64,000 nucleotides of DNA from a virus. Taxonomy: Duplodnaviria > Heunggongvirae > Uroviricota > Caudoviricetes. This document shows, one piece after another, positions 3,645 to 55,560 of the stretch. Location of the stretch: positions 33,387-97,386 of the IMG/VR virus record IMGVR_UViG_3300031760_000012; one strand, given 5' to 3'. Every line of letters starts with the position of its first letter. Position 1 is the first letter of the stretch. The notes beneath the pieces are model-generated. The model was not told where the DNA came from. It saw only the letters and a program-made list of their open reading frames with translations, and did not search any database. Made by a program: the position numbers and the translations under genes.

Positions 3645-3695
3645 CGATAAAACTACTACGAGGTGGGAGGCTTGTCCTCTCACCTCTTCACATAA

Positions 3696-9579: not shown

Positions 9580-9590
9580 AAGGAATAATT

Positions 9591-9752
9591 ATGGAAACTA
9601 TTAAAAACAACATCGCATTAGTAATCAATGCACTTAACAACGTAGAGACCAAAGGCGTGCAGAATCTCAACAATCTTGTTGGTAGTATCAACATCTTGCA
9701 GGAGACACTGAACAAATTATCAGAGCCGCCAGAAGTCGTCAATGAGGAGTGA
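9591..9752 (+). CDS. small hypothetical protein (53 aa); not in the ORF track
   Basis: ATG at 9591 preceded by AAAGGAATAAT; clean ORF METIKNNIALVINALNNVETKGVQNLNNLVGSINILQETLNKLSEPPEVVNEE; it fills the gap between the flanking genes. Confidence 0.35.
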   Translation: METIKNNIALVINALNNVETKGVQNLNNLVGSINILQETLNKLSEPPEVVNEE

Positions 9753-9758
9753 TCTCAT

Positions 9759-10559
9759 ATGGCATTTTATGGATGCGATTTCAAATACGACTCGTCATGG
9801 GCGAGCAACCTTGAGCTGCAGATTTACGACTTCGACTCTTCTGATCAAGGGTCGACGTCGGACTTTGTGGCTCAAGGAACCATCGTCAGCGATGCCGTAG
9901 CCGGGCGCGATGACATTTTGCTGTACGGGCAGGAGCAGAAAGATACTCTTGCCCCGCATCTTGTCTTCGGTGTCAATCAGGGACGGCTCGACGAGGACCG
10001 CTGGCTGACGCGGAAGGAAATCGCGCACATCGCAGAATGGCTCACAGCTGACGGACGGTGGCACTGGCTCAAGATCAAGCAGGAAGATATGGTCGAGTAT
10101 CGTTACAAGGTCGTTCTCGAGTCGCTGCAGCTGCTGCACAATGGGACGTATCCGTATGCGTTCGAGGCTAGCTTCGTCGCGGATTCTGCGTATGCGTACA
10201 TGTACCCGCGAGAATACACATGGCACAGGGGCGAGAACGAGTTTTACAACATCAGCACGAGCAAGATGTACTACAAGCCGACGCTACTCATCCATCTTTC
10301 TTCTGGCGGCGACTGCTCGATCGTGAATCACTCTGATGGCGACAGGGAGTTTAAGCTCGCTGGAGTTCCGGGGTCAGTGTCAAACATCTTGGTCGACAAC
10401 GCGAACCAGATTATCACGGATGTTGATGGCGGTCTGAATTTGTACGAGTACTTTAACTTCAACTTCTTCAGAGCGGTCAAAGGCAAGAACGACCTGACCG
10501 TTACCGGCAGTGATGAGATTGTTGCTATGTGCGAGTTCCCTATGAATATCGGGGTCTGA
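9759..10559 (+). CDS. hypothetical tail-associated protein
   Basis: 266-aa ORF within the tail module; no recognizable motif. Confidence 0.5.
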   Translation: MAFYGCDFKYDSSWASNLELQIYDFDSSDQGSTSDFVAQGTIVSDAVAGRDDILLYGQEQKDTLAPHLVFGVNQGRLDEDRWLTRKEIAHIAEWLTADGRWHWLKIKQEDMVEYRYKVVLESLQLLHNGTYPYAFEASFVADSAYAYMYPREYTWHRGENEFYNISTSKMYYKPTLLIHLSSGGDCSIVNHSDGDREFKLAGVPGSVSNILVDNANQIITDVDGGLNLYEYFNFNFFRAVKGKNDLTVTGSDEIVAMCEFPMNIGV

Positions 10560-15800: not shown

Positions 15801-18800
15801 CCTCGAAGATACTGACCATGTATCCAGCATTATCTCTGGCGGCGACGAAGGCGGAACTGATGCGCCTGTATTCAACGCGCAGGATTCTGTATTCTGGATG
15901 AACCTTAGAGACTCGTCAAGACCTGAACTTATGAGCATGTATAGAACGCTGAGAAGTGGTGCATGGTCATATTCGATCGTTGAGACAATGTTCGAAAATC
16001 ATCAGGCGAAGTGGCCAGAGGCGATCTTCAACGAGGACGCGTATGCGAAGTATTTAACTCCGCTTGTAGAAGCCGTTACGGTAGACGAAGAAACTGGCAA
16101 GCTCATCAAGACAGACCGTTACCTGACTATGCTTCAGGGATCTAAAACCGAGCAGCGTAAATGGTGGCTCAACGGGCGCTTCCGCTATATCGACTCCAAG
16201 TACAACACAGGCGATGCCGCCAACAAGTATATCTATATGCGTCTGTTCAATAACGGAACGCTGACGATTACCCCGGCGATCGACATGTACGTAGGAGCGA
16301 GCTTTGGCGGTGGAAGTACTCCGAACTTGAAGAGAACAACTGCGAATACTCCAGTTTCGTTCCCGTATCAGATGGACACGGGCGTAACCGAAATGGAAAC
16401 ATGGGTCTACTCCGCCGACTTGATCACAGACGTTGGCGATCTGGCTCCGCTATTCCCGAACGAACTGGACTTCAGTAGGGCGACCCGTATCAAGAATCTG
16501 AAGATCGGCGACGCATCACCGACCTACAGCAATGCGAACTTTAAGACACTGGACGTGCGGAACTCTGCCCTGCTCGAGACAATCGACGTACGGAACTGTC
16601 CGCAGCTGACGATTACGGTTAATCTCGAAGGATCGCCGAAGCTCAAAGAAGCGTACTTCGACGGAACTGCGATTACAGGTGTTGATCTGGTCGATGGCGG
16701 CGTGCTCGAGACGCTGCACCTGCCTGCGACGATTACGACGCTGACGCTGATGAACCAGAACAAGCTGACAGATCTGCAGATCGACTCTTACTCGAACGTG
16801 TCAAGGCTCATGCTGAAGGATATGAATCAGTCTGTTCTGAATCCACTGACCGTGCTTAGGCAGATCAGACCGAACGCACAGGTTTATATCAGCGGTCTGG
16901 AGCTGACACTGGCAACTGCTGCTGAGATCGAGGAGTTCTTGGATTTGCTCGACACGATGCAGGGTGTTGACCGTGAGAAGGGCACCGACGGATCGTGGGT
17001 TTACCATACGTATGATACTGCTCAGGTAGCTGGTGTTATTACGACAGGTTCGCTCACTGGCGCACAGGTTGCTTCGTACAACGCGAGATATCCGTACCTC
17101 GAGATCAACGCTGAGCATATTGAGTCAACGCTGACATATATGAATTTCGACGGGACGCAGACAATAAAGACTGTTCGGTGCTTGGATGGCGTGCCACAGG
17201 AAAGCGGTCCATCAGGTCCTACGAGGGAATCCACAGCACAGTACAACTTCACCTTTGTCGGCTGGAGCCGTGACAAGAACGCGGAAATTGCGCAGAGCGA
17301 CGCCGCGTCAAACGTCAAGGGCGACCGTACGATCTACGCTGCGTACACAAAGGCAATCAGATCGTATACAGTTACTTGGAAGAATCAGGGTACGACACTT
17401 AAGACAGACACTGTTGAGTATGGTGTTACTCCTTCATACTCAGGTCCGACCCCGACATATCAGGGACAGACATCGACTGGCTGGGACCCTGAGATTAGCC
17501 CGGTGACTGGCAATATTACGTATAACGCGACGTATCTGCCAAGATATACTGTTACATATTACAACGACACGACTGTAATAAAGACTGAGCAGGTTACGCA
17601 AGGCGCGAACGGTGTGCCACCTACTGAAACTCCGACGAAGCCTGGAAGCAATCCGGGAGATTACGAGTTCATGGGCTGGAATCCACTACCGAATAACGTA
17701 CAGGCGAACATGTCTGTATATGCACAGTACAAAGATAATCGGTCGGTTGTTGTTAAGTATTTGACGAATAGTCTTGATAAGTATGAAACGACATCGAATA
17801 CAACCCTGGCAGCAAACGCGTTCTATAATATGTCTTCGCTTACAGAAGTTTCTGGCCCGTTGACAACAATTGATTCATCAGCGTTCTCAAGCGCATCGAA
17901 TCTTACAAAAGTTGATCTGACCGGAACAAGCCCTGTGACGATTTCGACCACAGCGTTGGCAAGTAAGGCGAAATTGGACGCGTTGTTTATTCGCAGCACA
18001 ACTATGTCGTCTATGTCGAGCACGAGCAATCTCGCAGGCACAAAGATCTCTGCAGGAGCAGGAGCTATATATGTTCCGAGCGGATTGGTCGCGTCGTACA
18101 AAGCTGATTCAATATGGAAGAATTATTGCATTGCCTCGATTGACGATTATCCTATTACAGATTTCTCGACGATTACTGATTCGTGGGAGCAAATTTTCGC
18201 GAATGAGACTAATGGGTCGTATGCGAACAAGTATCACGTTGGTGACACAAAGAAGATCACCATTAACGGTGTCGAGGATTACATGCAGATAGTTGCCATG
18301 GAAGCAGATGATCTCGCTGATGGATCAGGCAAGGCAAAGATTACGTGGTTGAGCAAGGGATTATTCACGACTCATAAAATGAATGACACAGGTACCAACG
18401 CAAACGGCTGGGCTCAATCCGGTATGCGTACGTGGCTCAGAGAAACGATACTGCCTACGCTGGATTCAACAATTCAGAGCAATATCAAAGAAGTAACAAA
18501 GACGTATTATGATAAGACGACCACTTCGACATTATCAATCACAGATACGGTGTGGATCCCATCAGCTAGAGAAATATACGGAGGCACATCATACGAATCT
18601 GCAGGTTGTGATTATACTTCTCTGTTTAACTCAGATTCAGCACGCATTAAATATGACACATCAGGTACTGCCAGCGGTTGGTGGCTGCGTTCTGCTGATA
18701 GCAACAACGACACTTACTTCCGTTTTGTGCGTAGCTACGGTGGCGTGGGCAACGGCGGTGCCGGCTATACTTATGGCGTAGCCCTCGGCTTCTCGACTTG

Positions 18801-18801
18801 A
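12805..18801 (+). CDS. giant DGR target protein 1 (about 1998 aa), receptor-binding/tail-fiber type
   Basis: Features in order: poly-Gly linker (GGGGGGGGS); leucine-rich repeats (aa about 1240-1330 and BspA-like LRR near the C-terminus); three Listeria/Bacteroides-type (Flg_new-like) repeats; a C-terminal domain ...WWLRSA...GVALGFST whose last about 130 nt form VR1. The ATG at 12805 overlaps the upstream stop (TAATG); the track start at 12793 is a GTG. Confidence 0.8.
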   Translation: MSIKYLGESGTRTLINQLKSRLAEFYDKTETDTAIEVALSDEIAPLAETITTLNQNSETYCQALEVDEDGLVWLLNNGQRIEGPYGPFAGGGGGGGGSSVGGATMRVSNTTGWLSNTVVKDAECKVSMTWSSIEDDMPTGDGTVKVSVNGVLKSSRNVAQGAFEIDVAPYLATGTNMVQVALSDVYGTNRKINYTITVIELSISSTFDTTATFSGKITFPYTPVGAATKTIHFILDGTELDTLTTSASNRQLSYVIPQQSHGVHVFECYFDATINGQIVTSNRLYYEITCINEESSSTIISSSFNQSTVTQYTTLNIPYRVYTPSSSTSPVTIKVNGETKAELTVDRSEQIFTYRPSTPGTLTILFTCGDVNKTITLTVEEAEADVHAETQDLALYLNAISRSNAEADPSIWQYNNIKATLTGFNYIIDGWQQDDEGIDVLRVDGDARVTIPYNLFGTDFKSTGKTIEIEFATRQVSDYTATIISCFSDGIGLQITPQMVTFSGAQTSTNTLYKENEHITLSIVVEKQNENRLILVYINGIMSRAIQYASGERFSQLSPVGISIGSDDCGVDIYKIRVYDNSLSREQILDNWIADTQDGPTMLERYNHNDVYDEYGSVSINKLPKDLPYMILECDELPQYKGDKKKTVKGSFTDPVDSSMDFTFDGCEMDVQGTSSAPYYRKNFDMKFKACGFDTASGNVPVYALRKGSIPFNRFVLKADVASSESTNNTGLTMFYNDTCPYKTREMLANSKVRHGIEGIPIVLYWHDTVNDKTYFWGKYNFNLPKRANTPLGYSGNMQSWEWQRNNSPNVKFQASDFTTEIWDEEAGQYKPLWYDDFEARFPEDTWRDYTQLKEILDWVVSTDRTKATNETLSSPVSYTLDNTLTLVNYSDDTSYTVTDAANNKKTITFTKDTPAYRLTRFKAECGDRFEMQSAYFYYLFTELFLMIDSRAKNMFIGFKGSDVTLQGSSLTRKAVFEPYDMDTAIGTNNSGVLMFGYYLEDTDHVSSIISGGDEGGTDAPVFNAQDSVFWMNLRDSSRPELMSMYRTLRSGAWSYSIVETMFENHQAKWPEAIFNEDAYAKYLTPLVEAVTVDEETGKLIKTDRYLTMLQGSKTEQRKWWLNGRFRYIDSKYNTGDAANKYIYMRLFNNGTLTITPAIDMYVGASFGGGSTPNLKRTTANTPVSFPYQMDTGVTEMETWVYSADLITDVGDLAPLFPNELDFSRATRIKNLKIGDASPTYSNANFKTLDVRNSALLETIDVRNCPQLTITVNLEGSPKLKEAYFDGTAITGVDLVDGGVLETLHLPATITTLTLMNQNKLTDLQIDSYSNVSRLMLKDMNQSVLNPLTVLRQIRPNAQVYISGLELTLATAAEIEEFLDLLDTMQGVDREKGTDGSWVYHTYDTAQVAGVITTGSLTGAQVASYNARYPYLEINAEHIESTLTYMNFDGTQTIKTVRCLDGVPQESGPSGPTRESTAQYNFTFVGWSRDKNAEIAQSDAASNVKGDRTIYAAYTKAIRSYTVTWKNQGTTLKTDTVEYGVTPSYSGPTPTYQGQTSTGWDPEISPVTGNITYNATYLPRYTVTYYNDTTVIKTEQVTQGANGVPPTETPTKPGSNPGDYEFMGWNPLPNNVQANMSVYAQYKDNRSVVVKYLTNSLDKYETTSNTTLAANAFYNMSSLTEVSGPLTTIDSSAFSSASNLTKVDLTGTSPVTISTTALASKAKLDALFIRSTTMSSMSSTSNLAGTKISAGAGAIYVPSGLVASYKADSIWKNYCIASIDDYPITDFSTITDSWEQIFANETNGSYANKYHVGDTKKITINGVEDYMQIVAMEADDLADGSGKAKITWLSKGLFTTHKMNDTGTNANGWAQSGMRTWLRETILPTLDSTIQSNIKEVTKTYYDKTTTSTLSITDTVWIPSAREIYGGTSYESAGCDYTSLFNSDSARIKYDTSGTASGWWLRSADSNNDTYFRFVRSYGGVGNGGAGYTYGVALGFST
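18667..18796 (+). repeat. DGR variable region VR1 (3' end of target gene 1)
   Basis: Aligns over about 128 nt with the TR at 19271-19398. All 24 internal differences fall at TR adenines (AAC/AAT codons become GGC/TAC/CGT/AGC/GGT and so on). Confidence 0.85.
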
Positions 18802-18819
18802 TCTAAATATCAATCAACC

Positions 18820-18839
18820 TCGCCGCCTGCGTGCGGCGA
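18820..18839 (+). promoter_or_regulatory. GC-rich hairpin downstream of VR1, a DGR target-recognition/IMH-associated stem-loop
   Basis: TCGCCGC-ctgcgt-GCGGCGA, a perfect 7-bp stem about 23 nt after VR1. An identical element follows VR2 and none follows the TR. Confidence 0.6.
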
Positions 18840-18855
18840 ACACGTTGTAAAGGGG

Positions 18856-19263
18856 ATGATTATTATTTCAGTAGTTAAAAGCAAACGTGGCGTATCGAAA
18901 ATGGAGTTCGTCCATAACGCAGGAAAGTTAGCTGCGTTTACAATTAAAAGATGCGTAAATTTTCCGAAGAGATACACATTTTTCATAAGCGACCGGCTTG
19001 CTAATATGGCGTCCGAAGTATATACCAACGTAATACGTGCAAATAATATCTATGCGAAGAATCAGCACGACGCACAAATAAGAATAGATTTTCTTGTCGA
19101 CGCTCGCGGATTACTTTACGGTCTTATTTCTCAAATCGGAATCGCACGAGAGCTATTCACAATAAACGACAATGTAATGGAAGAGTGGATGACTTTGATA
19201 AACACTGAAATATCTCTTATAAACGGCGTGATCAAAAATGATAGAAGAAAGTTTGGGTTATAA
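18856..19263 (+). CDS. avd: accessory variability determinant (Avd-like four-helix-bundle protein)
   Basis: 135-aa basic protein between the VR and TR. The segment FPKRYTFFISDRLANMASEVYTNVIRAN resembles the FPKxE..S.LRRAA.SI..NIAEG core of the Avd/S23-IVP family. Position is the canonical target-avd-TR-RT order. An alternative start exists at 18901. Confidence 0.6.
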   Translation: MIIISVVKSKRGVSKMEFVHNAGKLAAFTIKRCVNFPKRYTFFISDRLANMASEVYTNVIRANNIYAKNQHDAQIRIDFLVDARGLLYGLISQIGIARELFTINDNVMEEWMTLINTEISLINGVIKNDRRKFGL

Positions 19264-19270
19264 ACTGTAT

Positions 19271-19398
19271 ACTGCCAACAATTGGTGGCTGCGTTCTGCT
19301 AATAGCAACAACGACACTAACTTCCGTAATGTGAATAACAACGGTAACGTGAACAACAACAATGCCAACAATACTAATGGCGTAGCCCTCGGATTCTC
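19271..19398 (+). repeat. DGR template repeat (TR)
   Basis: Non-coding copy of VR1/VR2, extremely adenine-rich (runs of AAC/AAT). It lies between avd and the RT and lacks the downstream hairpin. Confidence 0.85.
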
Positions 19399-19571
19399 TC
19401 AAGGCAGACAGAGTAACCATACGGCGAAATCAGTCCATGAAGAGAAGGAGTTTATAACCCTCCCGTATGGGTAAATGAATGCGCTGACGAGACAGAGTGG
19501 ACGCTGCTTGCATGGCAATATTTTATTGTTTCATACTCGGTCTCTACGAGTAGCGTACGAAAGGAATTTGT

Positions 19572-20672
19572 ATGACAAGCGAACAAAGGCATGCTGCAAG
19601 ACGAAAGCGACGTGAAGAAAAACGCCGCCAAAAGAAAGCTGAATTTATGTTGGATTACGACGATTTCGACAAGGTGTTTACATTTGACCATCTGTACAAG
19701 TCGTATGAAAAATGTCGCAGAAGCGTATCATGGAAATCGAGCGTGCAGAATTATATAGCTCAAGCTCCGCTAAAAGTTAATAACACGTTGAAAGAACTGC
19801 GAGAAGGTAAATTTAGAACAGACGGATTTTACGAATTCGACATATACGAGCGCGGCAAAATCAGACATATTAAATCTGTTACGATGCGCGAACGCGTTGT
19901 TCAAAGATGTTTGTGTGATTACGCCCTCACGCCTGTGTTATCAAGGACGTTCATATATGATAACGGAGCGTCGCTACCAGACAAAGGATACCATTTTTCA
20001 ATGAACAGAATTCAGGAGCACCTGAGAGAATGTGGTCGAGATGGATATATTTTACTTTTTGATTTTTCGCAATTCTTCGATAGCATTCCGCACGATATGG
20101 TAAAGGGCATTATCAGAAACGAATTTACTGATGAAAGGATTGTCGAGTTGTGCGACCATTTTGTCGACGTATTCGGCGACGTTGGACTAGGACTCGGATC
20201 TCAAATAAGCCAAATTCTCGCTCTGGCGGCAGTGAATCGTTTGGATCATTTTGTAAAAGAACACCTTAGAATACGTGGTTATGGAAGATATATGGATGAT
20301 GGTTATCTGATTCACAAAGATAAAGAGTATTTAAAATATTGTTTAAAAGAGATAAAAGCACTGTGTTCGGAACTTGGCATTGTGCTTAATCCAAAGAAAA
20401 CTCAAATCGTAAAAATTAGTCACGGATTCACATGGCTGAAATGTCGGTTCATTGTTACTGATAGTGGCAAGGTGATAAAGAAAATCTGCAAGAATTCGGT
20501 AACACGAGAGAGGCGTAAAATCAAAAAACTTTCAGCTATGCAACAACAAGGAATTGTCAGTATCGAGGATGTGACCGCATCATACCAGAGCTGGCGTGGA
20601 TATGCATCACACTTCGACGCATATCGTACAATCCAAAACATGGATAAATTATTTAAGGAGGAATTCTTATGA
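19572..20672 (+). CDS. DGR reverse transcriptase
   Basis: 366 aa. RT motifs present, including YMDD (RYMDDGYL) and the DGR-characteristic motif-4 variant LGLGSQISQ ([IL]GxxxSQ instead of QGxxxSP). RBS AAAGGAA. Located 170 nt downstream of the TR. Confidence 0.9.
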   Translation: MTSEQRHAARRKRREEKRRQKKAEFMLDYDDFDKVFTFDHLYKSYEKCRRSVSWKSSVQNYIAQAPLKVNNTLKELREGKFRTDGFYEFDIYERGKIRHIKSVTMRERVVQRCLCDYALTPVLSRTFIYDNGASLPDKGYHFSMNRIQEHLRECGRDGYILLFDFSQFFDSIPHDMVKGIIRNEFTDERIVELCDHFVDVFGDVGLGLGSQISQILALAAVNRLDHFVKEHLRIRGYGRYMDDGYLIHKDKEYLKYCLKEIKALCSELGIVLNPKKTQIVKISHGFTWLKCRFIVTDSGKVIKKICKNSVTRERRKIKKLSAMQQQGIVSIEDVTASYQSWRGYASHFDAYRTIQNMDKLFKEEFL

Positions 20673-21082
20673 GTAACTATACAGCACTTTTGCATGATGG
20701 GACTGTAATTCCAATCGCAGACGGCACTTACACACTGAATTTGATTTGTAATTTCGAAACGAAGGAAGCGTTCGAGTCCACATGGGGAACAATGAATTCT
20801 GAGTCTCTGAAAACGATCGAAATTCAGCGTGGCGAAATCACGGTTGGAACTTTCTACAACTGCGTTCTGACGAATATCCAGATCGTAATTAATTCAAACA
20901 ACACATATACAGTTCACTTCTATCTGAAAGAAAACGACACTGACGAAGAACTTCCAAAGACGTATACTCAGCTTCTCGCTGAACGTATTGACGCACTTGA
21001 AGATGGTCAGGCAACTCAGGACGGAGCGATCGAAGATCTCGGATACGCAATCTCTGAGCTCGCAGAAGGAGGCGAAGCATAA
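20669..21082 (+). CDS. hypothetical protein, in the XkdW-like position
   Basis: 137-aa ORF overlapping the RT stop (ATGA); acidic C-terminus. Confidence 0.45.
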   Translation: MSNYTALLHDGTVIPIADGTYTLNLICNFETKEAFESTWGTMNSESLKTIEIQRGEITVGTFYNCVLTNIQIVINSNNTYTVHFYLKENDTDEELPKTYTQLLAERIDALEDGQATQDGAIEDLGYAISELAEGGEA

Positions 21083-21189
21083 TGGGAAGATTCTATGGTG
21101 AAAAAATCCTTGCAGGACAGATGACGATTTATCAGGTGCCGAAATACTGGCGTAAAAAGGTTGAAGACTGGCTTGCTGAAAATCAGTAA
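21082..21189 (+). CDS. small XkdX-like protein (35 aa); not in the ORF track
   Basis: ATG overlaps the upstream stop (TAATG). MGRFYGEKILAGQMTIYQVPKYWRKKVEDWLAENQ resembles the small XkdX family proteins that follow tail fiber genes in Firmicutes prophages. Confidence 0.35.
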   Translation: MGRFYGEKILAGQMTIYQVPKYWRKKVEDWLAENQ

Positions 21190-21249
21190 GTTCGATAATA
21201 CGGTGGCTGGGTTCATTGCTCAGCCACCACTGAACAGAAAGGATTAATT

Positions 21250-22272
21250 ATGGCAAATACAAGAGATACATTAGGAGATCAGGCTACTCTTGATGGGCTG
21301 GTTAATGGTACGCTAACGGAGCTTGAAGAAGACGGAGTCACATCTCTTCCGTCGTATGCGCTTCACAAAAACACTCATATCGAGACGCTGAAATTCCCGA
21401 ATGTTACAAGCATTTCCGGTAACGCATTTAACGGATGTTCTGCATTAAAACATCTGGTCCTCGGTAGTTCAACAAAGTGTACGTTGTCAGCAACATCAGC
21501 CTTTACTGGGACGCCGATCAGCATGACTAAAGGCGCGATTTATGTGCCAAAAGATCTTGTGAGTACTTACAAAGCTGACTCCAATTGGAAGAATTATTTT
21601 ATTACATCTGACGAAAATTATCCAACGAGCGAGTATTCGACAATCACTGATTCGTGGGCACAGATCGTCGCGGCTATCAGCGATGGGTCATACGCGACAA
21701 AGTATAATGTCGGCGACACAAAGGCGATTTCGATCAATGGCGTAGATGATTATATGGTTTTGATCGCAAAAGACACTGACGTTCTGGCGGATGGATCTGG
21801 GAATGCGAAAACGACGTGGCTGAGTAAAGGACTATTCGCAACGCACAACATGAATACGCAAAGTACAAACGCAAACGGCTGGGCTCAATCCGGCATGCGT
21901 ACGTGGCTCAGAGAAACAATACTTCCAACTTTAGACTCTACTATACGAAGTGGAATTAAGGAAGTAACAAAAACATACTACGACAAAACCACATCTTCTA
22001 CTCTATCGGTTTCAGACACAGTGTGGATCCCATCTGCTCGTGAGATGTTTGGCGGTACGTCATATGAAGATTCTGGCTGTGACTACACATCATTGTTCAA
22101 TTCAAATTCAGCTCGCATTAAATACAATACATCAGGATCTGCCGACAGTTGGTGGCTGCGTTCTGCTCATAGCAGCTACGACACTAACTTCCGTTATGTG
22201 CGTAGCAACGGTGGCGTGGACGACAGCGGTGCCAGCAGTACTCGTGGCGTAGCCCTCGGCTTCTCGATTTGA
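21250..22272 (+). CDS. DGR target protein 2 (340 aa), a short paralog of the C-terminal LRR + variable domain of target 1
   Basis: About 60 percent identical to the last roughly 330 aa of the 2002-aa protein (same BspA-like LRR, SDTVWIPSARE, WWLRSA, GVALGF). RBS AAAGGA. The 3' end carries VR2. Confidence 0.8.
   Translation: MANTRDTLGDQATLDGLVNGTLTELEEDGVTSLPSYALHKNTHIETLKFPNVTSISGNAFNGCSALKHLVLGSSTKCTLSATSAFTGTPISMTKGAIYVPKDLVSTYKADSNWKNYFITSDENYPTSEYSTITDSWAQIVAAISDGSYATKYNVGDTKAISINGVDDYMVLIAKDTDVLADGSGNAKTTWLSKGLFATHNMNTQSTNANGWAQSGMRTWLRETILPTLDSTIRSGIKEVTKTYYDKTTSSTLSVSDTVWIPSAREMFGGTSYEDSGCDYTSLFNSNSARIKYNTSGSADSWWLRSAHSSYDTNFRYVRSNGGVDDSGASSTRGVALGFSI
22137..22266 (+). repeat. DGR variable region VR2
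   Basis: Aligns with the TR; its 22 internal differences from the TR are all at TR adenines. Differs from VR1 at many of the same adenine-templated positions. Confidence 0.85.
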
Positions 22273-36755: not shown

Positions 36756-37727
36756 TTACAGCTCGGTGTAAGCACTATGCTTTACACGGTCGTTTGTCTC
36801 GGCATATTTGCCATCGTTAAATCTCCTATAGTCTGCGGTCAGATATCCTGTAACTCGCCTGAGCTGTAATATGTTTTCGCTTCCGCACTCAGGACATCGG
36901 TCGTTAAACTCTCCCTGATATCCACAATCGAGACACGAGTCTATAGGAAAATTAAATGCAAGGTATGGAATATCGAGTTCTTTAAACGCATAGTCTATAA
37001 TATCTTCGACAGCTTTCGTATTGTTTACAAATGTTGAGTCTAGTTCGACATATGTGATGCAACCAGACTTCGGATACTTCGTGAAAGGAGCTTCACATTC
37101 CAGCTTTTCAAAGATGGATACTTCTTCCCATACAGGAACATGGTGAGAGTTTGTCAGATACTCTCTGTCTGTTACATTAGGAATAGATCCGTACTGTTCA
37201 TATAATTTGTTCCTCGCTGTCATACACAAACTCTCAGCAGGAGTCGCGTATGCCGCTCCATTCAGATTATTTCTTTCGCTAAACTCAGCTGCGAACTCTG
37301 CGATTCTTCTGACGACCGCCAGGGCGAAATCATGAATGTCTTTGTTGTGGACATGATTCTCTCCGAACAGCGCCTGACACATTTCTGCGATGCCGATATA
37401 CCCAAAGGCGAAACTGTTATGTTTCAGAGCATCGTAAACAGAATCTTTACATTTGTCGGCGTCAGATATTGTTCCATTCTGATACATAAACGGTGCCGCT
37501 TCAGCAGGTTGCTGTTTCATAATCTCAAAGCGCTCTAGATGCGCCTTTTCAACGAGCTTCAATGTTCTTTCGAGTTCATTCCAGAATCCGTCTAGATCTG
37601 GTTCTTTGCGCTTACCTAAACAGATGCCATATTCTATTCCGAGCTTTGGCAGAATAATCGTGATCGGGTTGTTGTTGCCGCGACCGACTCTACGATATCC
37701 GAGTCCGTTGCGATCATATCCGATCAT
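36756..37727 (-). CDS. nrdD: anaerobic ribonucleoside-triphosphate reductase, exon 3 (C-terminal part with zinc ribbon and glycyl-radical motif)
   Basis: NNNPITIILPKLG..., the CLDCGYQGEF..CPECG zinc ribbon, and the C-terminal RVTGYL glycyl-radical loop. Confidence 0.75.
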   Translation of the reverse strand: MIGYDRNGLGYRRVGRGNNNPITIILPKLGIEYGICLGKRKEPDLDGFWNELERTLKLVEKAHLERFEIMKQQPAEAAPFMYQNGTISDADKCKDSVYDALKHNSFAFGYIGIAEMCQALFGENHVHNKDIHDFALAVVRRIAEFAAEFSERNNLNGAAYATPAESLCMTARNKLYEQYGSIPNVTDREYLTNSHHVPVWEEVSIFEKLECEAPFTKYPKSGCITYVELDSTFVNNTKAVEDIIDYAFKELDIPYLAFNFPIDSCLDCGYQGEFNDRCPECGSENILQLRRVTGYLTADYRRFNDGKYAETNDRVKHSAYTEL

Positions 37728-38533
37728 CGTGCGACACGGGCGTTTCCGCCCAGACTATATCATGGGTGTCTGGTGCACCCCTCAAACGCTTCGACCCAAC
37801 GAGTTTCACGTCAGATCTACTCTACTCAGTTCCGTACCAGAAGTAACCCAGATTCCTCTTCTGGCGGCTTTTCGATAGTCGTTCCACATTCCGCAACATA
37901 ATCAAACACATAATCATAATGATTCTCTATTTCACCCTTCAATATCCTCGCGACCTTATGTCTGTCTACATGCAGGTCTTCTCCTAACGCTCTTATTGAC
38001 GGGTACTCTTTTCTCCAATCATCTTTAATGGCAACCACTTTAGTTCTGTTTTTGTGTGTTCTGTTTCCACTATGCCATCCATGGTATACATTGTATGAAT
38101 TAGTACACCATTCAAGATTATCAAGAGAGTTGTTAAGTTTATTACTATCAATATGGTTTACATATTTATAATTATTAGGATTATCTATAAATAAATTAGC
38201 GAATAACACATGTACTCTTATGTGTTTGCTGTCACCGTTTTCATCTCTTCTGGAAACTTGATAATAACCATCTGTTCCGACAAAAGGAGTCACAATATTT
38301 CCAGTCCTTGAGTTGTAGATGTTAAAATCATCATCTACCAAAAATCCTTTGTATTCTCTTATAAAAACACCCCCATTCGGAGTGTGTGATTATGTTGCTT
38401 AGCACGGCGATTACCATTGCTGGCTCCCCCGTTAGCACAGACACTATCTGTCATTTCCTACAGATCCTTCCGTTGTCTGTACACCCTACATGTGTAGGTT
38501 CGTTTGAGTTTTACATGGGCCGTCGTGTCGATA
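37728..38533 (-). mobile_element. group I intron 2 in nrdD with HNH ORF; the 5' boundary is approximate
   Basis: RNA (minus strand) has the S element GAUAUAGUCUGG followed by the P9 hairpin GGCGGAAACGCC (plus 37739-37763) just before exon 3. An R-like element GUGUACAGACAA lies at plus 38470-38486. The HNH ORF sits between R and S. Confidence 0.6.
37826..38341 (-). CDS. HNH homing endonuclease (intron-encoded)
   Basis: HVLFANLFIDNP...YVNHIDSNKLNNSLDNLEW HNH_3 core; 171 aa. Confidence 0.8.
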   Translation of the reverse strand: MVDDDFNIYNSRTGNIVTPFVGTDGYYQVSRRDENGDSKHIRVHVLFANLFIDNPNNYKYVNHIDSNKLNNSLDNLEWCTNSYNVYHGWHSGNRTHKNRTKVVAIKDDWRKEYPSIRALGEDLHVDRHKVARILKGEIENHYDYVFDYVAECGTTIEKPPEEESGLLLVRN

Positions 38534-39119
38534 TTGACCCATGGTTGCAAAATAAGTATCAGGATCATCCAGATCTTCATGCGCCTCTGACCAGTCGCAG
38601 TTTACAAAGTTCGGATAAATCCGTTTTGCCATTGACTTCAGAGCAAGCTCCTTGAGATCGTAATTCGGATCTCCCTGCTCTGCGTTATCTCCAGATTTGT
38701 ACTGGAATATCGAAATCGGGAATATTGGTGTAAGGTGGAATTTGCCAATTCCTGATATGCTTGCGAGCAACATGTGTCGCGTTACAAATCTTCCTTCCCA
38801 TGTAGTATTTCTTCCACTATTCAGGGACGTAAATGGAACTTGACTTCCAGCTCTACTCTCAAGTGTATTTAAATTGTGGTACAACGCTTCGAATGACTGC
38901 TTCCCCTCGCGCTCGAGCATATCCATCGCATAGTTATAAACTGCCTCGTGCCAGAGATAATCTTCTTGCTTGTAATCCCCAATAGATATATCAGCAGCCT
39001 CTTTCTTATATTTTTCGATCACTTCGTCACTTGCGTTTGCGATGTATTTCAGACCGTCCGCAAAATGTTTTATGAAGCTCTTCCTTACGAATGGGGCAAG
39101 ATCATAGTCTAGATGCCCA
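38534..39119 (-). CDS. nrdD: nrdD exon 2 (central part); its 3' end is approximate
   Basis: In-frame translation from the 3' splice site gives QYGGVASGHLDYDLAPFVRKSF...HNLNTLESRAGSQVPF...GDPNYDLKELAL...YPNF...ATMG, all class III RNR-like. Confidence 0.6.
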
Positions 39120-39522
39120 CTAGCTACACCGCCGTACTGCCAAACTATGTGTGCAGGTGTAGCATGTTACACACATAGCTCCGACTATATCTTCATCCGT
39201 TTATACGGAGATTCGCGCTTCGATTTAAGGGGGTTTCACCCACTGGGAATCACACCCAGCCCTACTCCTATTGCGAGCCAATACCGCCAATGGGATAGTC
39301 TGTTGACGTTTAAGATTGTTCTTTATAAAATCTAAATCCTTTTGTTGAGTTTTGTTTTCCAGTAAAACACAAATTTACATTTCCAATAAAAGAACAATCT
39401 ATTTCGCACAGGATATTTTCTGATCGGCTACATCAGAACCTTCCCCTGTTAGCACCATTACAGGCACACCCCGGTTGTCCGGGTTCACGAATTTTACTTC
39501 TGATCTTCTCAGATCAGTGAGG
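39120..39522 (-). mobile_element. group I intron 1 in nrdD (403 nt, no ORF)
   Basis: Exon 1 ends CAG-GU on a U and the intron ends ...UAGUUUG on a G. R element GUCAACAGACUAUCC (plus 39271-39287), S element GAAGAUAUAGUCGG (plus 39162-39172), then a P9 hairpin. The spliced product reads ...IMQCQSQ-V-QYGG..., in frame with exon 2. Confidence 0.7.
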
Positions 39523-40177
39523 CACTGTTACATACCTGGCTTTGGCACTGCATGATCACAGCAACCTGCTGACATGCTGTCGCCAGATTAGACGGAGGTC
39601 TTACATCACCATTTCTGGTCGTAAATCCCTCAGTTAACAATTTGTGGAAGTCGATAAACAAACAATTATGCTCGCCCACGTTGAACTTATCCAGATCGTG
39701 CTGATAAATGAGACCATCTTTATGCGCTTTTGCGACATCGTACGACATGTTATACTCAAGTGCGATCATCTTCTGAAGATCGGAACTTGCTTCTTTTTCT
39801 CTGCCGGAGAATGACTTTTCGTCCACATTTGCATTTGAGTTCTCCACATTCTTCGCGTCGATTCGCTCCATTACTTTATTAATAATTGCGTTGTTGATCC
39901 CACGCTTACGCGCATGGTCCTCTCTATATAATATGTATGCTTTCGCAACTCTGTCACATCCTGACAGCATCAGTTCCTTTTCTACGGCGTCCTGTATTTC
40001 CTCGACATTTACCATGCCGCGACCTTTAAAATACTCAGTCTCGATTTTTTCAGCGATTTCATTTGCTACGTCGGAGTTCAGGCTTCCTGTATCCGCCATT
40101 GCCTTATTGATTGCTGCCACGATTTTGCTTTTGTCGAAAAGTACTTTTCTTTTTCCATCACGCTTGAGTACTACCAT
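39523..40177 (-). CDS. nrdD: nrdD exon 1 (ATP-cone and N-terminal region)
   Basis: MVVLKRDGKRKVLFDKSKIVAAINKA is an ATP-cone; ...IYQHDLDKF...DVRPPSNLATACQQVAVIMQ follows the NrdD pattern. Confidence 0.7.
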
Positions 40178-50386: not shown

Positions 50387-50461
50387 TGGCACGGCGTAGT
50401 GGAGTCGAACCACTACTTTCTGGGTCAAAGCCAGACGGACTAACCGTTATCCGAACGCCGT
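50387..50461 (-). tRNA. tRNA-Gln (anticodon UUG), CCA encoded
   Basis: Manual fold: acceptor ACGGCGU/ACGCCGU, D-stem GGAU/GUCC, anticodon stem UCUGG/CCAGA with loop CUUUGAC, T-arm AGUGG-UUCGACU-CCACU, discriminator G, CCA; 75 nt. Confidence 0.8.
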
Positions 50462-50464
50462 TAG

Positions 50465-50540
50465 TGGCATACCCTGCAGGGCTCGAACCTGCGACACCCG
50501 GTTTTGGAGACCGGCGCTCTCCCAACTGAGCTAAGGGTAC
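50465..50540 (-). tRNA. tRNA-Trp (anticodon CCA), CCA encoded
   Basis: Manual fold: acceptor GUACCCU/AGGGUAU, D-arm GCUC-AGUUGGGA-GAGC, anticodon stem CCGGU/ACCGG with loop CUCCAAA, T-arm GCAGG-UUCGAGC-CCUGC; 76 nt; 3 nt from tRNA-Gln. Confidence 0.8.
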
Positions 50541-51142: not shown

Positions 51143-53125
51143 TTATGCTACGTGTGCGTACTTTCGGAGCTGGAACCATTTGCCGTCTTTCGTGTATTCC
51201 AGGCATCGTATAACATCATTAGGTTTGATAGGGGATTTATCATACGCACCCTTAAACACGGTCATGCGACCCTCGATCCCAGATCCAATTGATTGATAAA
51301 AGACAGCATAGCCGAAAAGCTTTCCGTCTTTTTTGCGCTTCACTGGCTGGACGTCTTTCACGTACAGGGTGCTCCGATCTGACTGCACTCCCGTCACGAA
51401 CCCGACGTAGCCAGCCACGTCAGCGTAGTTTCTGGCTTTCTCAGCCAGAGAGAGATCTGCTATGTGCTGACTCTTGACAAAGTCTTCAGCTGAACGAGCG
51501 ATTGTTTGGGCGTCAAAACCAGTCCAGCTTACGGATTCTTTGCCTGCTTTGGTCAGTCCATCAGCATGCAACCTGAAAACTTCTTCTATGCCGGCGTCAC
51601 GTGCCTTTTCTTTTCGAATTGACTTTGCGTCGCCGGACTTCAATAGCGTATTATATATGTACATCAAAGCCTCGAGCTCCCGCTGATTCCCGAAGTCGCT
51701 GAAGAAGTCGAGCTTGCGCAGTATGTCCATCTGTCTGGCATCAATATCCGTGTTGGATATGTCCGCCAGAAGATCGACAAAGTAGTTGTAAGTTCGGCTA
51801 TGCGCTAGCTCGTATAAGGTCTCGGCGCACCTTTTCGAAATGAACTTCACACTGGCGACCCCGCGGGAAATAACATTTTCGGCTTTGTTGTACTCGTAAT
51901 GTGATCTGGACAAACCAAATTTTGGTGTTGTCATTTTGATTCCGTATACTTTCGCGAGTTCTGCACCGTTGCGTATATCATCGTCATTGGCGGCTGTATT
52001 CAGATACGCCGTGATGAATTCGCCAGGATAATAATAACGGAAGTATGCGCAGTAATATGTCAACATGGAATAGCTTATTCCATGATTCTTGGAAAACATA
52101 TAAGAAGACGCATCTTCTATTACCTGCAAAAACTCCCTTGCCTCATCTTCTGCGACATCCCTTGGTTTATCTGATTTCATACAGTACCCATCCAATATCA
52201 CAGGGATCCATTCCTTCAGTTTGTCAAGGTTCTTTTTTGCGATAAATCTCCTTACAGAGTCAGCGGAAGATCCGGATAATCCACATATTTTTTGAAGAAA
52301 ATCGATGATTTGTTCTTGAAAAACTAGCCAGGCGTAACTTTCTGACAACATTTCATCGATCTGCTTTGATGGATTATGATTATATTTTCTAGAGAACAAA
52401 GCTTCTCTGTACGATGCTCCAGAAGGTCTGATCGCCGCCGTTACGAGTGTTATGTCATGAACACTCTGTGGACGAAACTTTTTGAGACTATTAAATGCAA
52501 AATCACCTTCGAACTGGAATAATCCAACAGGCGATCTCATCATATCTTCAAAGACCTTCTCGTCGTTCCAGTTGATCTCGTGTGCGACGGGATATGGAAT
52601 TCCTATGGACTTACATGTTGTGTCTATAAGCTCCAAAGTTTTTAATGCAAGAAAGTCGAATTTCGCAAGGTTTACATAATGAGCTGAATTCATATCCAGC
52701 ATCAGAATGTTATCATTGTCCTTCCTGTATGTTCCGTATGTATCAGTCAGTGGGATCGGCGAAATTACGATCCCGGCAGGATGAATGCTTAAGCTGGAAT
52801 ACGTGCCTAAAAGCCCATCGTAGTAATAAAACAGTTCTGGATATTTACTCTTTGTGGCTTCCTCATCTGCTTCGAACTCTTTCTTGATCTGATCAATTTT
52901 CTTTACAGACCAAGGACATTCTGCATCTTCGTTCTTTATAATTCTATCGATACGACTGACCTTCTCCCAGTCCAGTTTGAGAGCTCTCCCGATTTCTTCT
53001 ATAACTGCTTTCGATTTGAGAGTCTGATACGCTGCGACTCGCGCCGTATATCTTTCTCCGAATCTATCAATAATGTATTTAAAAATTCGTGGTCGTTGTT
53101 TTTCTATGCAATCGATGTCGATATC
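51143..53125 (-). CDS. dnaE: DNA polymerase III alpha (DnaE-type), exon 2
   Basis: In-frame translation back to the 3' splice site gives DIDIDC...RFGERYTARVAAYQTLKSKAVIEEIGRAL...SIHPAGIVISPIPLTD...FDFLALKTLE...FSKNHGISYSMLTYYCAYFRYYYPGEFITA, all canonical DnaE palm/fingers motifs. The track ORF begins only at the internal Met at 52702. Confidence 0.7.
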   Translation of the reverse strand, partial: DIDIDCIEKQRPRIFKYIIDRFGERYTARVAAYQTLKSKAVIEEIGRALKLDWEKVSRIDRIIKNEDAECPWSVKKIDQIKKEFEADEEATKSKYPELFYYYDGLLGTYSSLSIHPAGIVISPIPLTDTYGTYRKDNDNILMLDMNSAHYVNLAKFDFLALKTLELIDTTCKSIGIPYPVAHEINWNDEKVFEDMMRSPVGLFQFEGDFAFNSLKKFRPQSVHDITLVTAAIRPSGASYREALFSRKYNHNPSKQIDEMLSESYAWLVFQEQIIDFLQKICGLSGSSADSVRRFIAKKNLDKLKEWIPVILDGYCMKSDKPRDVAEDEAREFLQVIEDASSYMFSKNHGISYSMLTYYCAYFRYYYPGEFITAYLNTAANDDDIRNGAELAKVYGIKMTTPKFGLSRSHYEYNKAENVISRGVASVKFISKRCAETLYELAHSRTYNYFVDLLADISNTDIDARQMDILRKLDFFSDFGNQRELEALMYIYNTLLKSGDAKSIRKEKARDAGIEEVFRLHADGLTKAGKESVSWTGFDAQTIARSAEDFVKSQHIADLSLAEKARNYADVAGYVGFVTGVQSDRSTLYVKDVQPVKRKKDGKLFGYAVFYQSIGSGIEGRMTVFKGAYDKSPIKPNDVIRCLEYTKDGKWFQLRKYAHVA

Positions 53126-54084
53126 CTTTTTGATTGTTTATGTTTTGCAGGAGTAAACACTGCTCTCTCCTCATCCCATCCAAGCGTGTAAATGCGATTC
53201 CATATTGTTGAGCTGTTAACACCCGACAACTCAGACCATTCTTTAACAGTGTGCGATTCTCCATTGATTGTTATTGGACTATTCTTGCTTTTTACCGGTC
53301 TTGTAACAGCATCTTCAATGCTCCAACCTTTATACACCCTTCCTCTTAGTGTCTGTATATTTATGTCGAACCTTTCAGATAACTCTCTTAAAGTGTACTC
53401 TTCCCCTTTGTACGAATACTTTTTATTCAATTCCGCAACAGGAGTTTTTATTGCTTTGTCTGCATCCCACTTTCCTTTAGCGACTCTTGCTCTAAGAGTT
53501 ACTTTTTTAATCCTAAATTCGTCCGCCCATTCACAAGCACTCTTTACCTCTCCATCTAATTCCAATAAAATTGTTTTTTCTTTATTAGTACTTTGTGTTT
53601 TAATATCTACAAATCTGCAATTATCAGGACAATACCCTTTGTTAACGTTTATCCTATCAATAGTACACTCTCCGTAATCTGCATTTTCGTCATACCCGTT
53701 CGAAATAGCCCATTGTTTGAACTCTGAATAATCGTGCAGCCATTCATCACACACAGTTATCCCTCTTCCGCCATATCTTGCATACTTTTGATTATTCGTG
53801 TTATAACATCTTCCCTTCATACTCTCCCAGACATGGTACAATCTGTCATAACTGCCTCCATGTGTTAACGAGTTGGTGTGAATCTTTTCATCACGTAAAC
53901 ACCCACAAGATTTTGTATTACCGCTTCTTAAATTCGAACCTCTGACGTTTGTTATGTTTCCGCATTTACAACGACATTCCCATACTGGGGTTTTAATACC
54001 TGTTTCCGAAACATAGTCTTCAACACGCCTTAAAACAGTAAGTCGTCCAAAAGTTTTTCCGGTTAAATCTTTAAGTTTTCCCAT
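53104..54084 (-). CDS. intron-encoded homing-endonuclease-like DNA-binding protein (Zn ribbon + YxxWxxMxxRC...YGGRGI.VC.EW module + three HTH-like repeats)
   Basis: FGRLTVL...WECRCKCGN...SCGC and YHVWESMKGRCYNTNNQKYARYGGRGITVCDEW. Three repeats of the type EWADEFRIKKVTLRARVAKGKW, as in NUMOD-type homing-endonuclease DNA-binding modules. The last about 7 codons overlap dnaE exon 2 in another frame. Confidence 0.6.
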   Translation of the reverse strand: MGKLKDLTGKTFGRLTVLRRVEDYVSETGIKTPVWECRCKCGNITNVRGSNLRSGNTKSCGCLRDEKIHTNSLTHGGSYDRLYHVWESMKGRCYNTNNQKYARYGGRGITVCDEWLHDYSEFKQWAISNGYDENADYGECTIDRINVNKGYCPDNCRFVDIKTQSTNKEKTILLELDGEVKSACEWADEFRIKKVTLRARVAKGKWDADKAIKTPVAELNKKYSYKGEEYTLRELSERFDINIQTLRGRVYKGWSIEDAVTRPVKSKNSPITINGESHTVKEWSELSGVNSSTIWNRIYTLGWDEERAVFTPAKHKQSKRISTSIA

Positions 54085-54384
54085 ACTTCACCTCCCTTCC
54101 ACGAAACCTTACAACACTCCATGTTTCCATGGAGAATAGACTATATCTTTACTCTATCATTTAAGTCGCAGAGCACTCACCGCTGTCCCATATGGGCACT
54201 TAGTCGTTGAACGTTCTCCTGTTCGGAGCTTCGCTGCTGATTGCCTAATCGACGTCTTTTTCAAGCATTCGCGCTTATCTATATTTCATGATTACGCTGT
54301 AGCAGACGCCGCTCTAAAGGGTTTCCAGCAATTCAATGAGTATTTTTTCGAACGCTTACAGCGACATCAGCGAACGTTGGCAAT
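53126..54384 (-). mobile_element. group I intron in dnaE (about 1259 nt) with an endonuclease-like ORF extending across the 3' splice site
   Basis: Exon 1 ends ...IGKD (GAU) and the intron ends ...AAAAAG. The junction rebuilds the polymerase catalytic motif (xDIDIDC, compare PDIDIDF). P-like GAAUUGCUGGAAAC (plus 54321-54334), R element GUUCAACGACUAAGUG (plus 54197-54213), and S element AAAGAUAUAGUC (plus 54139-54149) are all present. Confidence 0.7.
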
Positions 54385-55560
54385 ATCTTTACCAATCTCG
54401 ACGCGATTTTCATTGCAGAACCTTGAAAAAACTGTCCCCCATATCATCGGATTCACATCTGTGATTTCCGTCAAATATGCGACAAGGCTACCAGCAACAC
54501 TACCGCGTCCAGTACCGATTGCAATATTATTGTTTTTACACCACACTATGATTTCTGACATGAGAAGCATGAATCCGCCCATGCCAACCTTTTTAAATAC
54601 ATTCAGTTCTTCCTGTATCCTATCAACATATTCCTGTTCTTTATCTGGCGGCACGATTCCGCTTTCGAGTTTCTCGTTGAACATCTCCCACGTTTTCTCC
54701 TCAAAGATCTCAGTGTCTCTTTCAGGTGATCCGTTTATGATCGGATATTTAATATCTTCTGTGTTCAAATAAAGCTCTTCACACCACTCATCTAACAAAT
54801 TCGTATTCTCGATCGCCTGCATATAAACTTCTTCTGACAAAGCATCTTGCTTCTTGAACGCATCAACAAGCTGATCGTACGTTTTGTACGTAAGATCAAA
54901 TCCTGATTCGTCATAGTCGATATGTTTTGCTTTTAGAAACATCGTCCTGCATTGAGCTTTGTATTCATTGATCGAATGAGCGTCAGTTGCGGCTATAAGA
55001 GGTTTATTAAATCGTTGTGATAATTCGAAAAGCTTTTTGTTGTACGAAACTTGCTCTGGATTTGTGTGCGGTTGCACTTCGTAGAACGTAAATTTTGCCG
55101 CCAGAAGAGGAAAGTATGGGTTGTTTTCGTCGAGCTTATTGAGCGGTCCTGCAAGACACGCAGACGTAGTTATGATATTGTCGCTTATTTTTAAGAACGT
55201 GTCGAAATCAACACGATTCTTATAGTAAAAATGTTCCTCGTCTGAACTCAGTGCGATCAGCCTATTCAGTTCTTCGACGCCTTTCTGATTCCGCGCGATC
55301 ATAACCGTGTGGTAGTTATCCCTAACCTTTTCGTCAAGCGTTTCCGTGAGGTACATTTCTACAGAATGAAGGTACTTGATCCCTTTCTCCTTGCAGTACG
55401 CCCATTTGTCGACCCAGTTCAACGGCTTCCCATGCTCAGAAATCGAGATCGCCTTAAGCCCTTCGTCGACCGCCGCGTCAATGTAATCCTGAAACTTTGT
55501 ACACGAGTCGAGAATACTCAGATCACTGTGCATATGGTATGGCACATATAATTTACTCAC
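54385..55560 (-). CDS. dnaE: DNA polymerase III alpha (DnaE-type), exon 1 (PHP domain + start of palm)
   Basis: HMHSDLSILDS...ISEHG (PHP) and IGTGRGSVAGSLVAYLTEITDVNP...FSRFCNENRVE (DnaE palm). The ORF runs into a stop 5 codons into the intron. Confidence 0.75.

Follow-up and report, generated by a model that had tools for sequence, protein, structure and literature searches.

A group I intron carrying an endonuclease-like open reading frame in the dnaE gene of a Caudoviricetes phage

We analysed a window of 64,000 nucleotides (nt) from a phage genome (Caudoviricetes; IMG/VR record IMGVR_UViG_3300031760_000012); window coordinates count from the first nucleotide of this stretch. The analysis centred on the dnaE region (51143-55560, minus strand), where an earlier note, made from the sequence, had proposed that a group I intron bearing an endonuclease open reading frame (ORF) splits the gene for the replicative polymerase. 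The region belongs to a replication module on the minus strand, in which genes for a DnaB-like helicase (57996-56656) and a DnaG-like primase (56576-55566) are followed by the dnaE-like gene. In Pfam searches, one ORF (55560-54367, minus strand) matched PHP and, of the Pol III alpha core model (DNA_pol3_alpha), positions 1-100, and another (52702-51143, minus strand) matched the DNA_pol3_finger and HHH_6 (HhH) domains. Gene callers yield two DnaE products, of 397 and 519 amino acids (aa). The gene is laid out as follows:

54391-55560, minus strand: dnaE exon 1, 390 codons, encoding PHP and the N-terminal part of the Pol III alpha palm and ending ...NENRVEIG (GGU); from Pfam, collinearity with the intron-less contig L039 up to 54391, and homolog alignment
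53126-54390, minus strand: group I intron, 1265 nt, from A54390 to the omega-G at 53126; from the Rfam model RF00028 and its exact absence in L039
54367-54369, minus strand: UGA stopping the exon-1 frame seven codons into the intron (…EIG-KDIANVR, then stop); from the ORF translation
51143-53125, minus strand: dnaE exon 2, 660 codons plus stop, starting GAU AUC GAC AUC GAU (D391-I-D393-I-D395) and encoding the finger, HhH and C-terminal domains; from Pfam and collinearity with L039 from 53125

A group I covariance model search, a check that the earlier note had proposed, was carried out with cmscan against Rfam and gave a match to RF00028 at 54421-54117 on the minus strand, with 92.7 bits (E 1.7e-22), far above the gathering score of 50, and with model positions 1-253 of 253 covered. 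Together with the guide pairing in P1 and P10, the terminal G, and an intron-less allele that lacks exactly 1265 nt, this score bears out the proposal that a group I intron interrupts dnaE. Of the 34 IMG/VR relatives, most run collinearly through the insertion site, and the alignment showed that homologs without the intron read ...FSRFCNENRVEIG-DIDID..., with no extra KD residues. A protein search identified an intron-less DnaE of 1045 aa (P0121), which is 98% identical to the predicted spliced product at 100% coverage. In its contig, L039, positions 3048-7155 correspond to window 58500-54391 and positions 7156-9771 to window 53125-50545; the contig is contiguous from 7155 to 7156 and lacks exactly window 54390-53126 (1265 nt), with flanks that are 92-93% identical. 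At this point ...GTAGAGATTGGT runs directly into GATATCGACATC... (in short form, ...GAGATTGGT into GATATCGAC...), GGT being joined directly to GATATC, and the intron-less site reads CGTAGAGATTGGTGATATCGACATCGATTGC. The predicted intron boundaries are fixed independently by this allele.

The 5' splice site falls after GGU (Gly390) and the 3' splice site directly before the Asp391 codon; the intron begins with AAAGAUAUUGCCAA and ends ...AAAAAG, with G53126 as its terminal omega-G. The ligated junction is predicted to be ...GAGAUUGGU followed by GAUAUCGAC..., that is, ...CGAGAUUGGU joined to GAUAUCGACAUC.... The predicted spliced dnaE ORF has 1050 codons, giving a 1050-aa Pol III alpha that reads ...RVEIG-DIDIDC... 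across the junction. This protein aligns end to end with intron-less homologs, with PHP, the palm Asp pair, the finger and HhH collinear in one chain.

The earlier note had correctly let the exon-2 frame resume at 53125, and had ended exon 1 at ...EIGKD (GAU, 54385), which gave an intervening length of 1259 nt and a catalytic aspartate motif assembled across the junction. Homolog alignment and L039 place the end of exon 1 at ...EIG (GGU, 54391), 6 nt upstream; the intervening sequence is 1265 nt (54390-53126), exactly the stretch missing from L039, and the whole DIDID is encoded by exon 2. The sequence AAAGAUAUU, counted as exon 1 in the earlier note, forms the intron's 5' end and contains the P10 guide; because GAUAUC is palindromic, its guide resembles exon 2, which accounts for the misreading. 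Splicing at the earlier junction would keep the reading frame, would also follow a U, and would produce ...EIGKD-DIDIDC... from a cDNA reading GGUAAAGAU followed by GAUAUC. It would, however, add a KD found in no homolog at a point where the intron-less contig has none, and no nearby intron sequence was found that pairs U54385 with a G in P1. Refuted by the homolog alignment and the intron-less allele, that junction is almost certainly wrong.

The window and L039 were also compared around the insertion site. Four synonymous differences (TGC/TGT, AAT/AAC, AAT/AAC, GTC/GTA) lie in the 25 nt upstream of the site (window 54392-54416, L039 7131-7155), the 37 nt downstream are identical, and the divergence elsewhere in dnaE is ~3-4%. 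The upstream cluster may represent a co-conversion tract or target-site variation, the counts being too small to decide. Megablast of 51143-55560 against phage records gave no match.

The position of the intron within the polymerase was determined by ungapped phmmer alignments to 2HNH and 2HPI, which put two codons at the start of exon 2 on known residues of bacterial replicases:

53117-53125, minus strand: Asp391 and Asp393 codons, aligned with E. coli Pol III alpha D401/D403 and Taq D463/D465

We take the residues equivalent to E. coli D401/D403 to be the two palm carboxylates of the Pol III alpha catalytic triad. By this alignment, the intron is inserted between the Gly390 and Asp391 codons, directly 5' of the first catalytic Asp codon. 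The first 141 codons of exon 2 include no ATG, GTG or TTG, so that a full polymerase would need RNA splicing. No convincing ribosome-binding site was seen at the start of exon 2.

The cmscan alignment and the fold of the RNA gave the following elements of the predicted ribozyme, all on the minus strand:

54377-54387: internal guide 5'-GAUAUUGCCAA-3', 11 nt; from the sequence, P1 in the minimum free energy (MFE) fold, and the duplex energy
54117-54363: ribozyme core P2-P9; from the cmscan alignment and from compensatory changes that four related introns show in P5, P6 and P6a
54341-54334/54182-54175: P3; cmscan alignment
54330-54326/54239-54235: P4, with a P5/P5a extension present; cmscan alignment
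54234-54211: P6/P6a; cmscan alignment
54210-54201/54149-54139: P7; cmscan alignment
54197-54186: P7.1; cmscan alignment
54174-54151: P8; cmscan alignment
54134-54117: P9 hairpin with a GAAA loop; cmscan alignment

In P1, GCCAA of the guide pairs with UUGGU at the end of exon 1, which places U54391 in a U.G wobble at the 5' splice site, and the helix continues with AA/UU, so that UUGGU/AA pairs with UUGCCAA; P1 is present in the MFE fold. In P10, GAUAUU of the guide pairs with GAUAUC at the start of exon 2 over 6 bp, contiguous with P1. The 11-nt guide spans the ligated junction without a break, and its duplex with the ligated exons was calculated at -11.2 kcal/mol. The P-like (GAAUUGCUGGAAAC), R (GUUCAACGACUAAGUG) and S (AAAGAUAUAGUC) elements that the earlier note had named were located at about 54332-54319, 54212-54197 and 54150-54139, respectively. 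A single hairpin, GCCCAUAUGGGA (54197-54186), lies between P7 and the 3' strand of P3, where the relative L025 has two; together with the P5 extension, this hairpin suggests that the intron may be subgroup IA-like, as in other phage introns. Four related cores share 66% column identity and show compensatory changes in P5, P6 and P6a, albeit among few sequences, and P7 covaries between the window intron (GACUA/UAGUC) and that of L035 (GAGUA/UACUC). The MFE fold of the core gave z = -1.5 against shuffles, a value that is uninformative for a pseudoknotted ribozyme.

Downstream of the S element and P9 lies the 326-aa ORF, as had been proposed, and its end does overlap exon 2 in a different frame:

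54089-54096, minus strand: Shine-Dalgarno sequence GGGAGGUG, with its GGAGG core 6 nt upstream of the ORF AUG; read from the sequence
53104-54084, minus strand: endonuclease-like ORF, 326 aa, with a Zn-ribbon, a beta-beta-alpha-Me-like domain and three helix-turn-helix (HTH)-like repeats
53104-53125, minus strand: overlap of the ORF with exon 2, comprising the last nt of codon 320, six codons (ISTSIA) and UAG, in another frame than dnaE

The ORF fills nearly all of the ~990 nt between P9 and the omega-G; the splice site cuts its codon 320 (AG/G), and its stop codon (53106-53104) lies 22 nt inside exon 2. Since an independent Logan assembly, L038, is 100% identical over window 54229-51091, the overlap of ORF and exon 2 is not an assembly artefact. 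Two related ORFs in L025 stop ~11 and ~9 nt before their 3' splice sites, so the order of core, ORF and splice site is the normal layout in this intron family. A scan for sigma-70-like promoters found no convincing minus-strand promoter within the intron. The local fold pairs the Shine-Dalgarno sequence (unpaired probability 0.06-0.42) at a modest -12.8 kcal/mol, and no claim is built on it.

The ORF protein was examined by sequence searches and by structure prediction. PHROGs labels it 'HNH endonuclease' (phrog_374, E 1.4e-72; PHROG 374/3377), and the family comprises 6859 proteins at E <= 1e-10. Pfam and NCBIfam searches of the 326-aa protein gave no match, phmmer against PDB sequences returned noise only, and Foldseek of the model against the PDB found nothing at E <= 0.001. 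The AlphaFold model is confident (predicted local distance difference test, pLDDT, 92.8) except for residues 319-326 (pLDDT <50). It consists of an N-terminal Cys-rich beta ribbon of the Zn-ribbon type (C37, C39, C41, C60, C62), a central domain with a weakly PacI-like beta-beta-alpha unit (141-165), and three C-terminal HTH-like repeats, each of two short strands and three helices. The central domain carries the motif T-I-D143-R144-I-N-x-N-K-x-Y151-x-P-x-N155-C-R-F, followed by Q164 and N167, which was aligned by eye with the canonical HNH_3 ORF at 37826-38341 of the window (NHIDSNKLNNSLDNLEW; N-H-I-D-S-N-K-L-N-N-S-L-D-N-L-E-W).

The protein had been described as a Zn-ribbon/NUMOD-like endonuclease. 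The Cys-rich ribbon of the model agrees with the first part of that description; the second was not sustained, as Pfam NUMOD1, NUMOD3 and NUMOD4 matched none of 79 family members at E <= 0.1, and the C-terminal repeats gave only weak generic HTH matches (Sigma70_r4, HTH_psq, MerR) in the same scan. By sequence, then, the ORF belongs to a large family without a Pfam model and is not a NUMOD protein. In its predicted architecture it resembles a modular phage HNH homing enzyme, from which an endonuclease activity would follow, but it lacks two defining HNH features, a model match and the catalytic His.

The last residues of the protein were considered separately. In homologs, the last folded repeat ends ...GW..E.A..tP and is followed by short variable tails. 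Because residues 319-326 are disordered in the model and the corresponding segment is variable in homologs, the exon-encoded tail is most simply read as a neutral extension after loss of a stop codon, probably 'core creep' that has reached the exon. Overlap of ORFs with intron structure, and the term 'core creep', were described by Edgell, Chalamcharla and Belfort in 2011 (PMC3073962). One consequence would be that the excised intron carries a non-stop ORF, a properly terminated protein arising only from unspliced RNA that keeps exon 2. Ribosomes that translate the end of the ORF would, in addition, sit over the omega-G at the 3' splice site and the exon partner of P10.

These results very probably identify a mobile, possibly subgroup IA-like group I intron with an endonuclease-like ORF in phage dnaE, inserted between Gly390 and Asp391. 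The identity of the intron, its exact boundaries, its presence/absence polymorphism, and the family and predicted fold of its ORF were established in silico. We infer self-splicing, the endonuclease activity and its target, and the interplay of translation with splicing. In the mechanism that we propose, the P1-P9 ribozyme would form in the pre-mRNA from the intron's first 274 nt, and the guide GAUAUUGCCAA would hold UUGGU, the end of exon 1, in P1 with the U.G wobble at the point of cleavage. Once guanosine has attacked, this guide would also align the exon-2 start GAUAUC in P10, and the terminal G53126, ~990 nt past P9, would be used for the exon ligation that yields ...RVEIG-DIDIDC... and the 1050-aa Pol III alpha. 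The ORF product would presumably cut or nick intron-less dnaE alleles and so drive homing, its stop having come to lie 22 nt into exon 2 probably through 'core creep' extended into the exon.

Several observations weigh against this reading. The 3' splice site lies ~990 nt downstream of the core (P9), and no convincing long-range pairing was found between the P9-to-AUG linker, including the Shine-Dalgarno sequence, and the last 60 nt of the intron. The best duplexes in the search lay elsewhere in the ORF, the intron tail reached only -13 kcal/mol, and only P10 and a possible two-base P9.0 were found to link the 3' splice site to the core. On the protein side, the nuclease domain had no match to any Pfam HNH model in the protein and its relatives (79 family members), and the position of the HNH general-base His is occupied by an invariant Arg, R144, in 79 of the 79. 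The two protein observations, together with the missing NUMOD matches, a structural match to a nuclease that is only weak, and an ORF that extends into exon 2 after losing its original stop codon, would also fit an intron that splices but whose ORF has lost, or has never had, homing endonuclease activity, the protein being a DNA-binding remnant or a maturase-like or regulatory factor and the intron being immobile or mobilised in trans. We regard this as improbable: the strong conservation of a polar and Cys core across a family of more than 6800 members argues for selection on function, related ORFs accompany homologous cores at several dnaE and dnaB sites, which is the pattern expected of active homing, and the 98% identical intron-less allele points to recent gain or loss. 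PacI, moreover, is reportedly an HNH enzyme for which Shen et al. in 2010 proposed a non-histidine residue to start cleavage.

A split polymerase, with the two dnaE pieces translated separately and assembled non-covalently around a free-standing endonuclease gene and a dead ribozyme relic, would account for the two products given by gene callers, and fractured genes separated by endonuclease genes do exist, though with split inteins (PMC2677866). It is highly improbable here, since the ribozyme core is intact and scores far above the Rfam gathering threshold, the guide fits both exon ends, the catalytic DIDID segment would never be translated from 141 conserved start-less codons, and the break falls directly before the first catalytic Asp in one continuous conserved segment. 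An intein was also considered and rejected; the insert has no intein motifs and contains stop codons in all frames. Returning to the mobile intron, a further elaboration joins two proposals and is doubtful as a whole. It holds that the stop codon is kept deliberately in exon 2 as a switch between homing enzyme and DnaE, with terminated endonuclease made only from unspliced RNA, the excised intron non-stop, and ribosomes transiently blocking the 3' splice site and P10. It also holds that the >6800-member family, with its invariant Arg for the HNH His, is an uncharacterised beta-beta-alpha-Me branch in which catalysis starts from a different residue, such as an invariant Tyr of the kind proposed for PacI.

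Conserved phage genes, among them those for DNA polymerases, are well-documented hosts of group I introns that carry endonuclease ORFs (PMC3984707, PMC3073962, PMC11878797). Gut jumbo phages (Jug phages) have thousands of such introns, part of them confirmed by metatranscriptomes (PMC12880540). In the literature searched, a partial corpus, no described group I intron in phage dnaE was found, and a phrase search yielded no ORF that continues into the exon downstream of its intron. The window element resembles those of the Bacillus phages SPO1, SP82 and Bastille (I-HmuI, I-HmuII, I-BasI) in combining a group I intron with an HNH-type ORF in a replicative DNA polymerase gene at a conserved motif, and in that related phages carry different introns at nearby sites (PMC3984707, PMC3073962). 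The SPO1 ORF lies in P8 and the enzymes of these phages have the canonical HNH motif, whereas the window intron interrupts a family C (DnaE) polymerase, with its ORF 3' of P9 and Arg for the HNH His. The polymerases of SPO1, SP82 and Bastille belong to family A and are not DnaE/Pol III alpha.

The T4 nrdD (sunY) intron, as Michel et al. are said to have described it in 1992 (Genes Dev), has a complete core at its 5' end, an ORF downstream and a remote 3' splice site. This subgroup IA-type intron, which encodes I-TevII, is like the window element in lying in a phage gene of nucleotide metabolism or replication, and unlike it in host gene (nrdD versus dnaE) and endonuclease family. The T4 sunY intron has a structured 3'-terminal domain and an ORF ending inside the intron; the window intron, in contrast, has almost only ORF between P9 and the 3' splice site, and this ORF runs 22 nt into the exon. 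As in the 'core creep' of I-TevI/td, the ORF appears to have been lengthened by stop loss to the next in-frame stop, with a short, structurally dispensable extension, and competition between splicing and the translation of structural elements is expected (PMC3073962). The listed cases of 'core creep' enter intron core helices, whereas the window ORF crosses the 3' splice site into the exon, so that splicing would part its stop from the intron RNA. Inteins and split inteins of dnaE (Synechocystis DnaE; PMC2677866) likewise are selfish elements that split the replicase alpha subunit at a conserved region and make splicing necessary, but they act at the protein level as in-frame inserts, whereas the window insert is an RNA ribozyme. 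In Jug phages (PMC12880540) and Bastillevirinae (PMC11878797), many group I introns and HNH genes similarly fragment essential genes (terL, nrdD, DNA polymerase), and the window, too, appears to have additional insertions in nrdD; lineage and polymerase type differ from those of the window phage, and the text searched mentions no dnaE case.

We surveyed dnaE in relatives at 45-60% protein identity (IMG/VR contigs) and found the gene interrupted at many sites, at least seven of them group I-like. The insertions, by dnaE codon, were:

Codon 140/153: L035
Inside the Ile389 codon: L032 and L033, ~860 nt, the core containing a canonical HNH ORF
Between Gly390 and Asp391: the window phage
Between Asp391 and Ile392: L035, 312 nt, without an ORF
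About codon 548: L025, with a core homologous to that of the window intron
597/599: L020-L022
About 678: L027-L030 and L037
734/735: L017, L018, L020, L022, L023 and L026

Three different introns thus lie within 7 nt at the catalytic motif. Only part of the listed insertions are recognised by Rfam. The insertions in L032 (3141-4001) and L033 (1552-2409) are 4 nt upstream of the window site, and that in L035 (3689-4000) is 3 nt downstream. RF00028 matched none of these insertions in L032, L033 and L035, even at E 0.1, probably because of a ~600-nt ORF that splits the core (L032, L033) and because of divergence (L035). When the insertions of L025, L032, L033, L035, L017 and L020 were aligned, R- and S-type motifs followed by a P9-like hairpin were seen; from these motifs, the hairpin and the P7 covariation, those of L032, L033 and L035 are called group I-like. 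Cores homologous to that of the window were found in L025, in both dnaE (~codon 548) and dnaB, and upstream of dnaE in L020, with Rfam scores of 78-86 bits across these cores.

In L025, an intron of the same family (888-1750), accompanied by a related 3' ORF, splits the DnaB helicase gene between ...ELGKFVD and VKNK.... L020 has a near-identical core (766-1713) at the equivalent upstream position, and dnaB of the window is uninterrupted. Genes for IS605-type OrfB/TnpB (Cas12f-like) and IS1595 transposases were observed near the replication module of intron-less relatives (L039 1-97; L041 and L042 7913-9153).

The dnaE element is a real, precisely delimited group I intron of a known kind, in a gene for which the literature searched held no earlier report, and it leaves current concepts unchanged. 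Of modest interest are its site immediately ahead of the catalytic Asp codon, an ORF that runs across the 3' splice site, and an endonuclease family that is atypical. For annotation, the finding matters in that gene callers drop 141 codons, including the catalytic DIDID, so that such phages appear to lack an intact replicase. It extends the picture of phage introns, known from family A and B polymerases, ribonucleotide reductase, thymidylate synthase and terminase, to the family C replicase. The dense independent insertions at the catalytic aspartates clearly illustrate how selfish elements converge on DNA that is highly conserved and can least afford to change. With 92-93% nucleotide identity between them, the alleles with and without the intron are a ready substrate for homing assays, and the ORF offers an entry to a large family without a Pfam model and with an HNH-like motif that has no His.

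Other elements were noted in the window. Downstream of dnaE lie tandem tRNA-Gln(UUG) and tRNA-Trp(CCA) genes (50387-50540, minus strand), and an ~85-nt tRNA-Trp segment is missing in L039 (9771-9777). The gene for anaerobic ribonucleotide reductase, nrdD (36756-40177, minus strand), is in three collinear pieces that match Pfam NRDD positions 2-99, 128-263 and 272-562. Its first gap (~39500-39140) gave a sub-threshold RF00028 match at 39424-39162 (21.2 bits, E 0.43) and contains an S element, GAAGATATAGTC, and no ORF; its second gap (~38500-37730) contains the canonical HNH_3 ORF (38341-37826). These features suggest that the window probably holds two more introns, both in nrdD.

On the plus strand, an RT-2 RNA (RF03077, 104.9 bits) at 19399-19578 is followed by a reverse transcriptase gene (RVT_1, YMDD) at 19572-20672, with a possible small accessory ORF at 18856-19263. 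Possible targets are an ORF of 2002 aa (12793-18801) and an ORF with DUF6273 (21250-22272), which have near-identical C-termini (...WWLRSA.S..DT.FR.VRS.GGV...GVALGFS). This arrangement suggests that window 12793-22272 is likely a diversity-generating retroelement.

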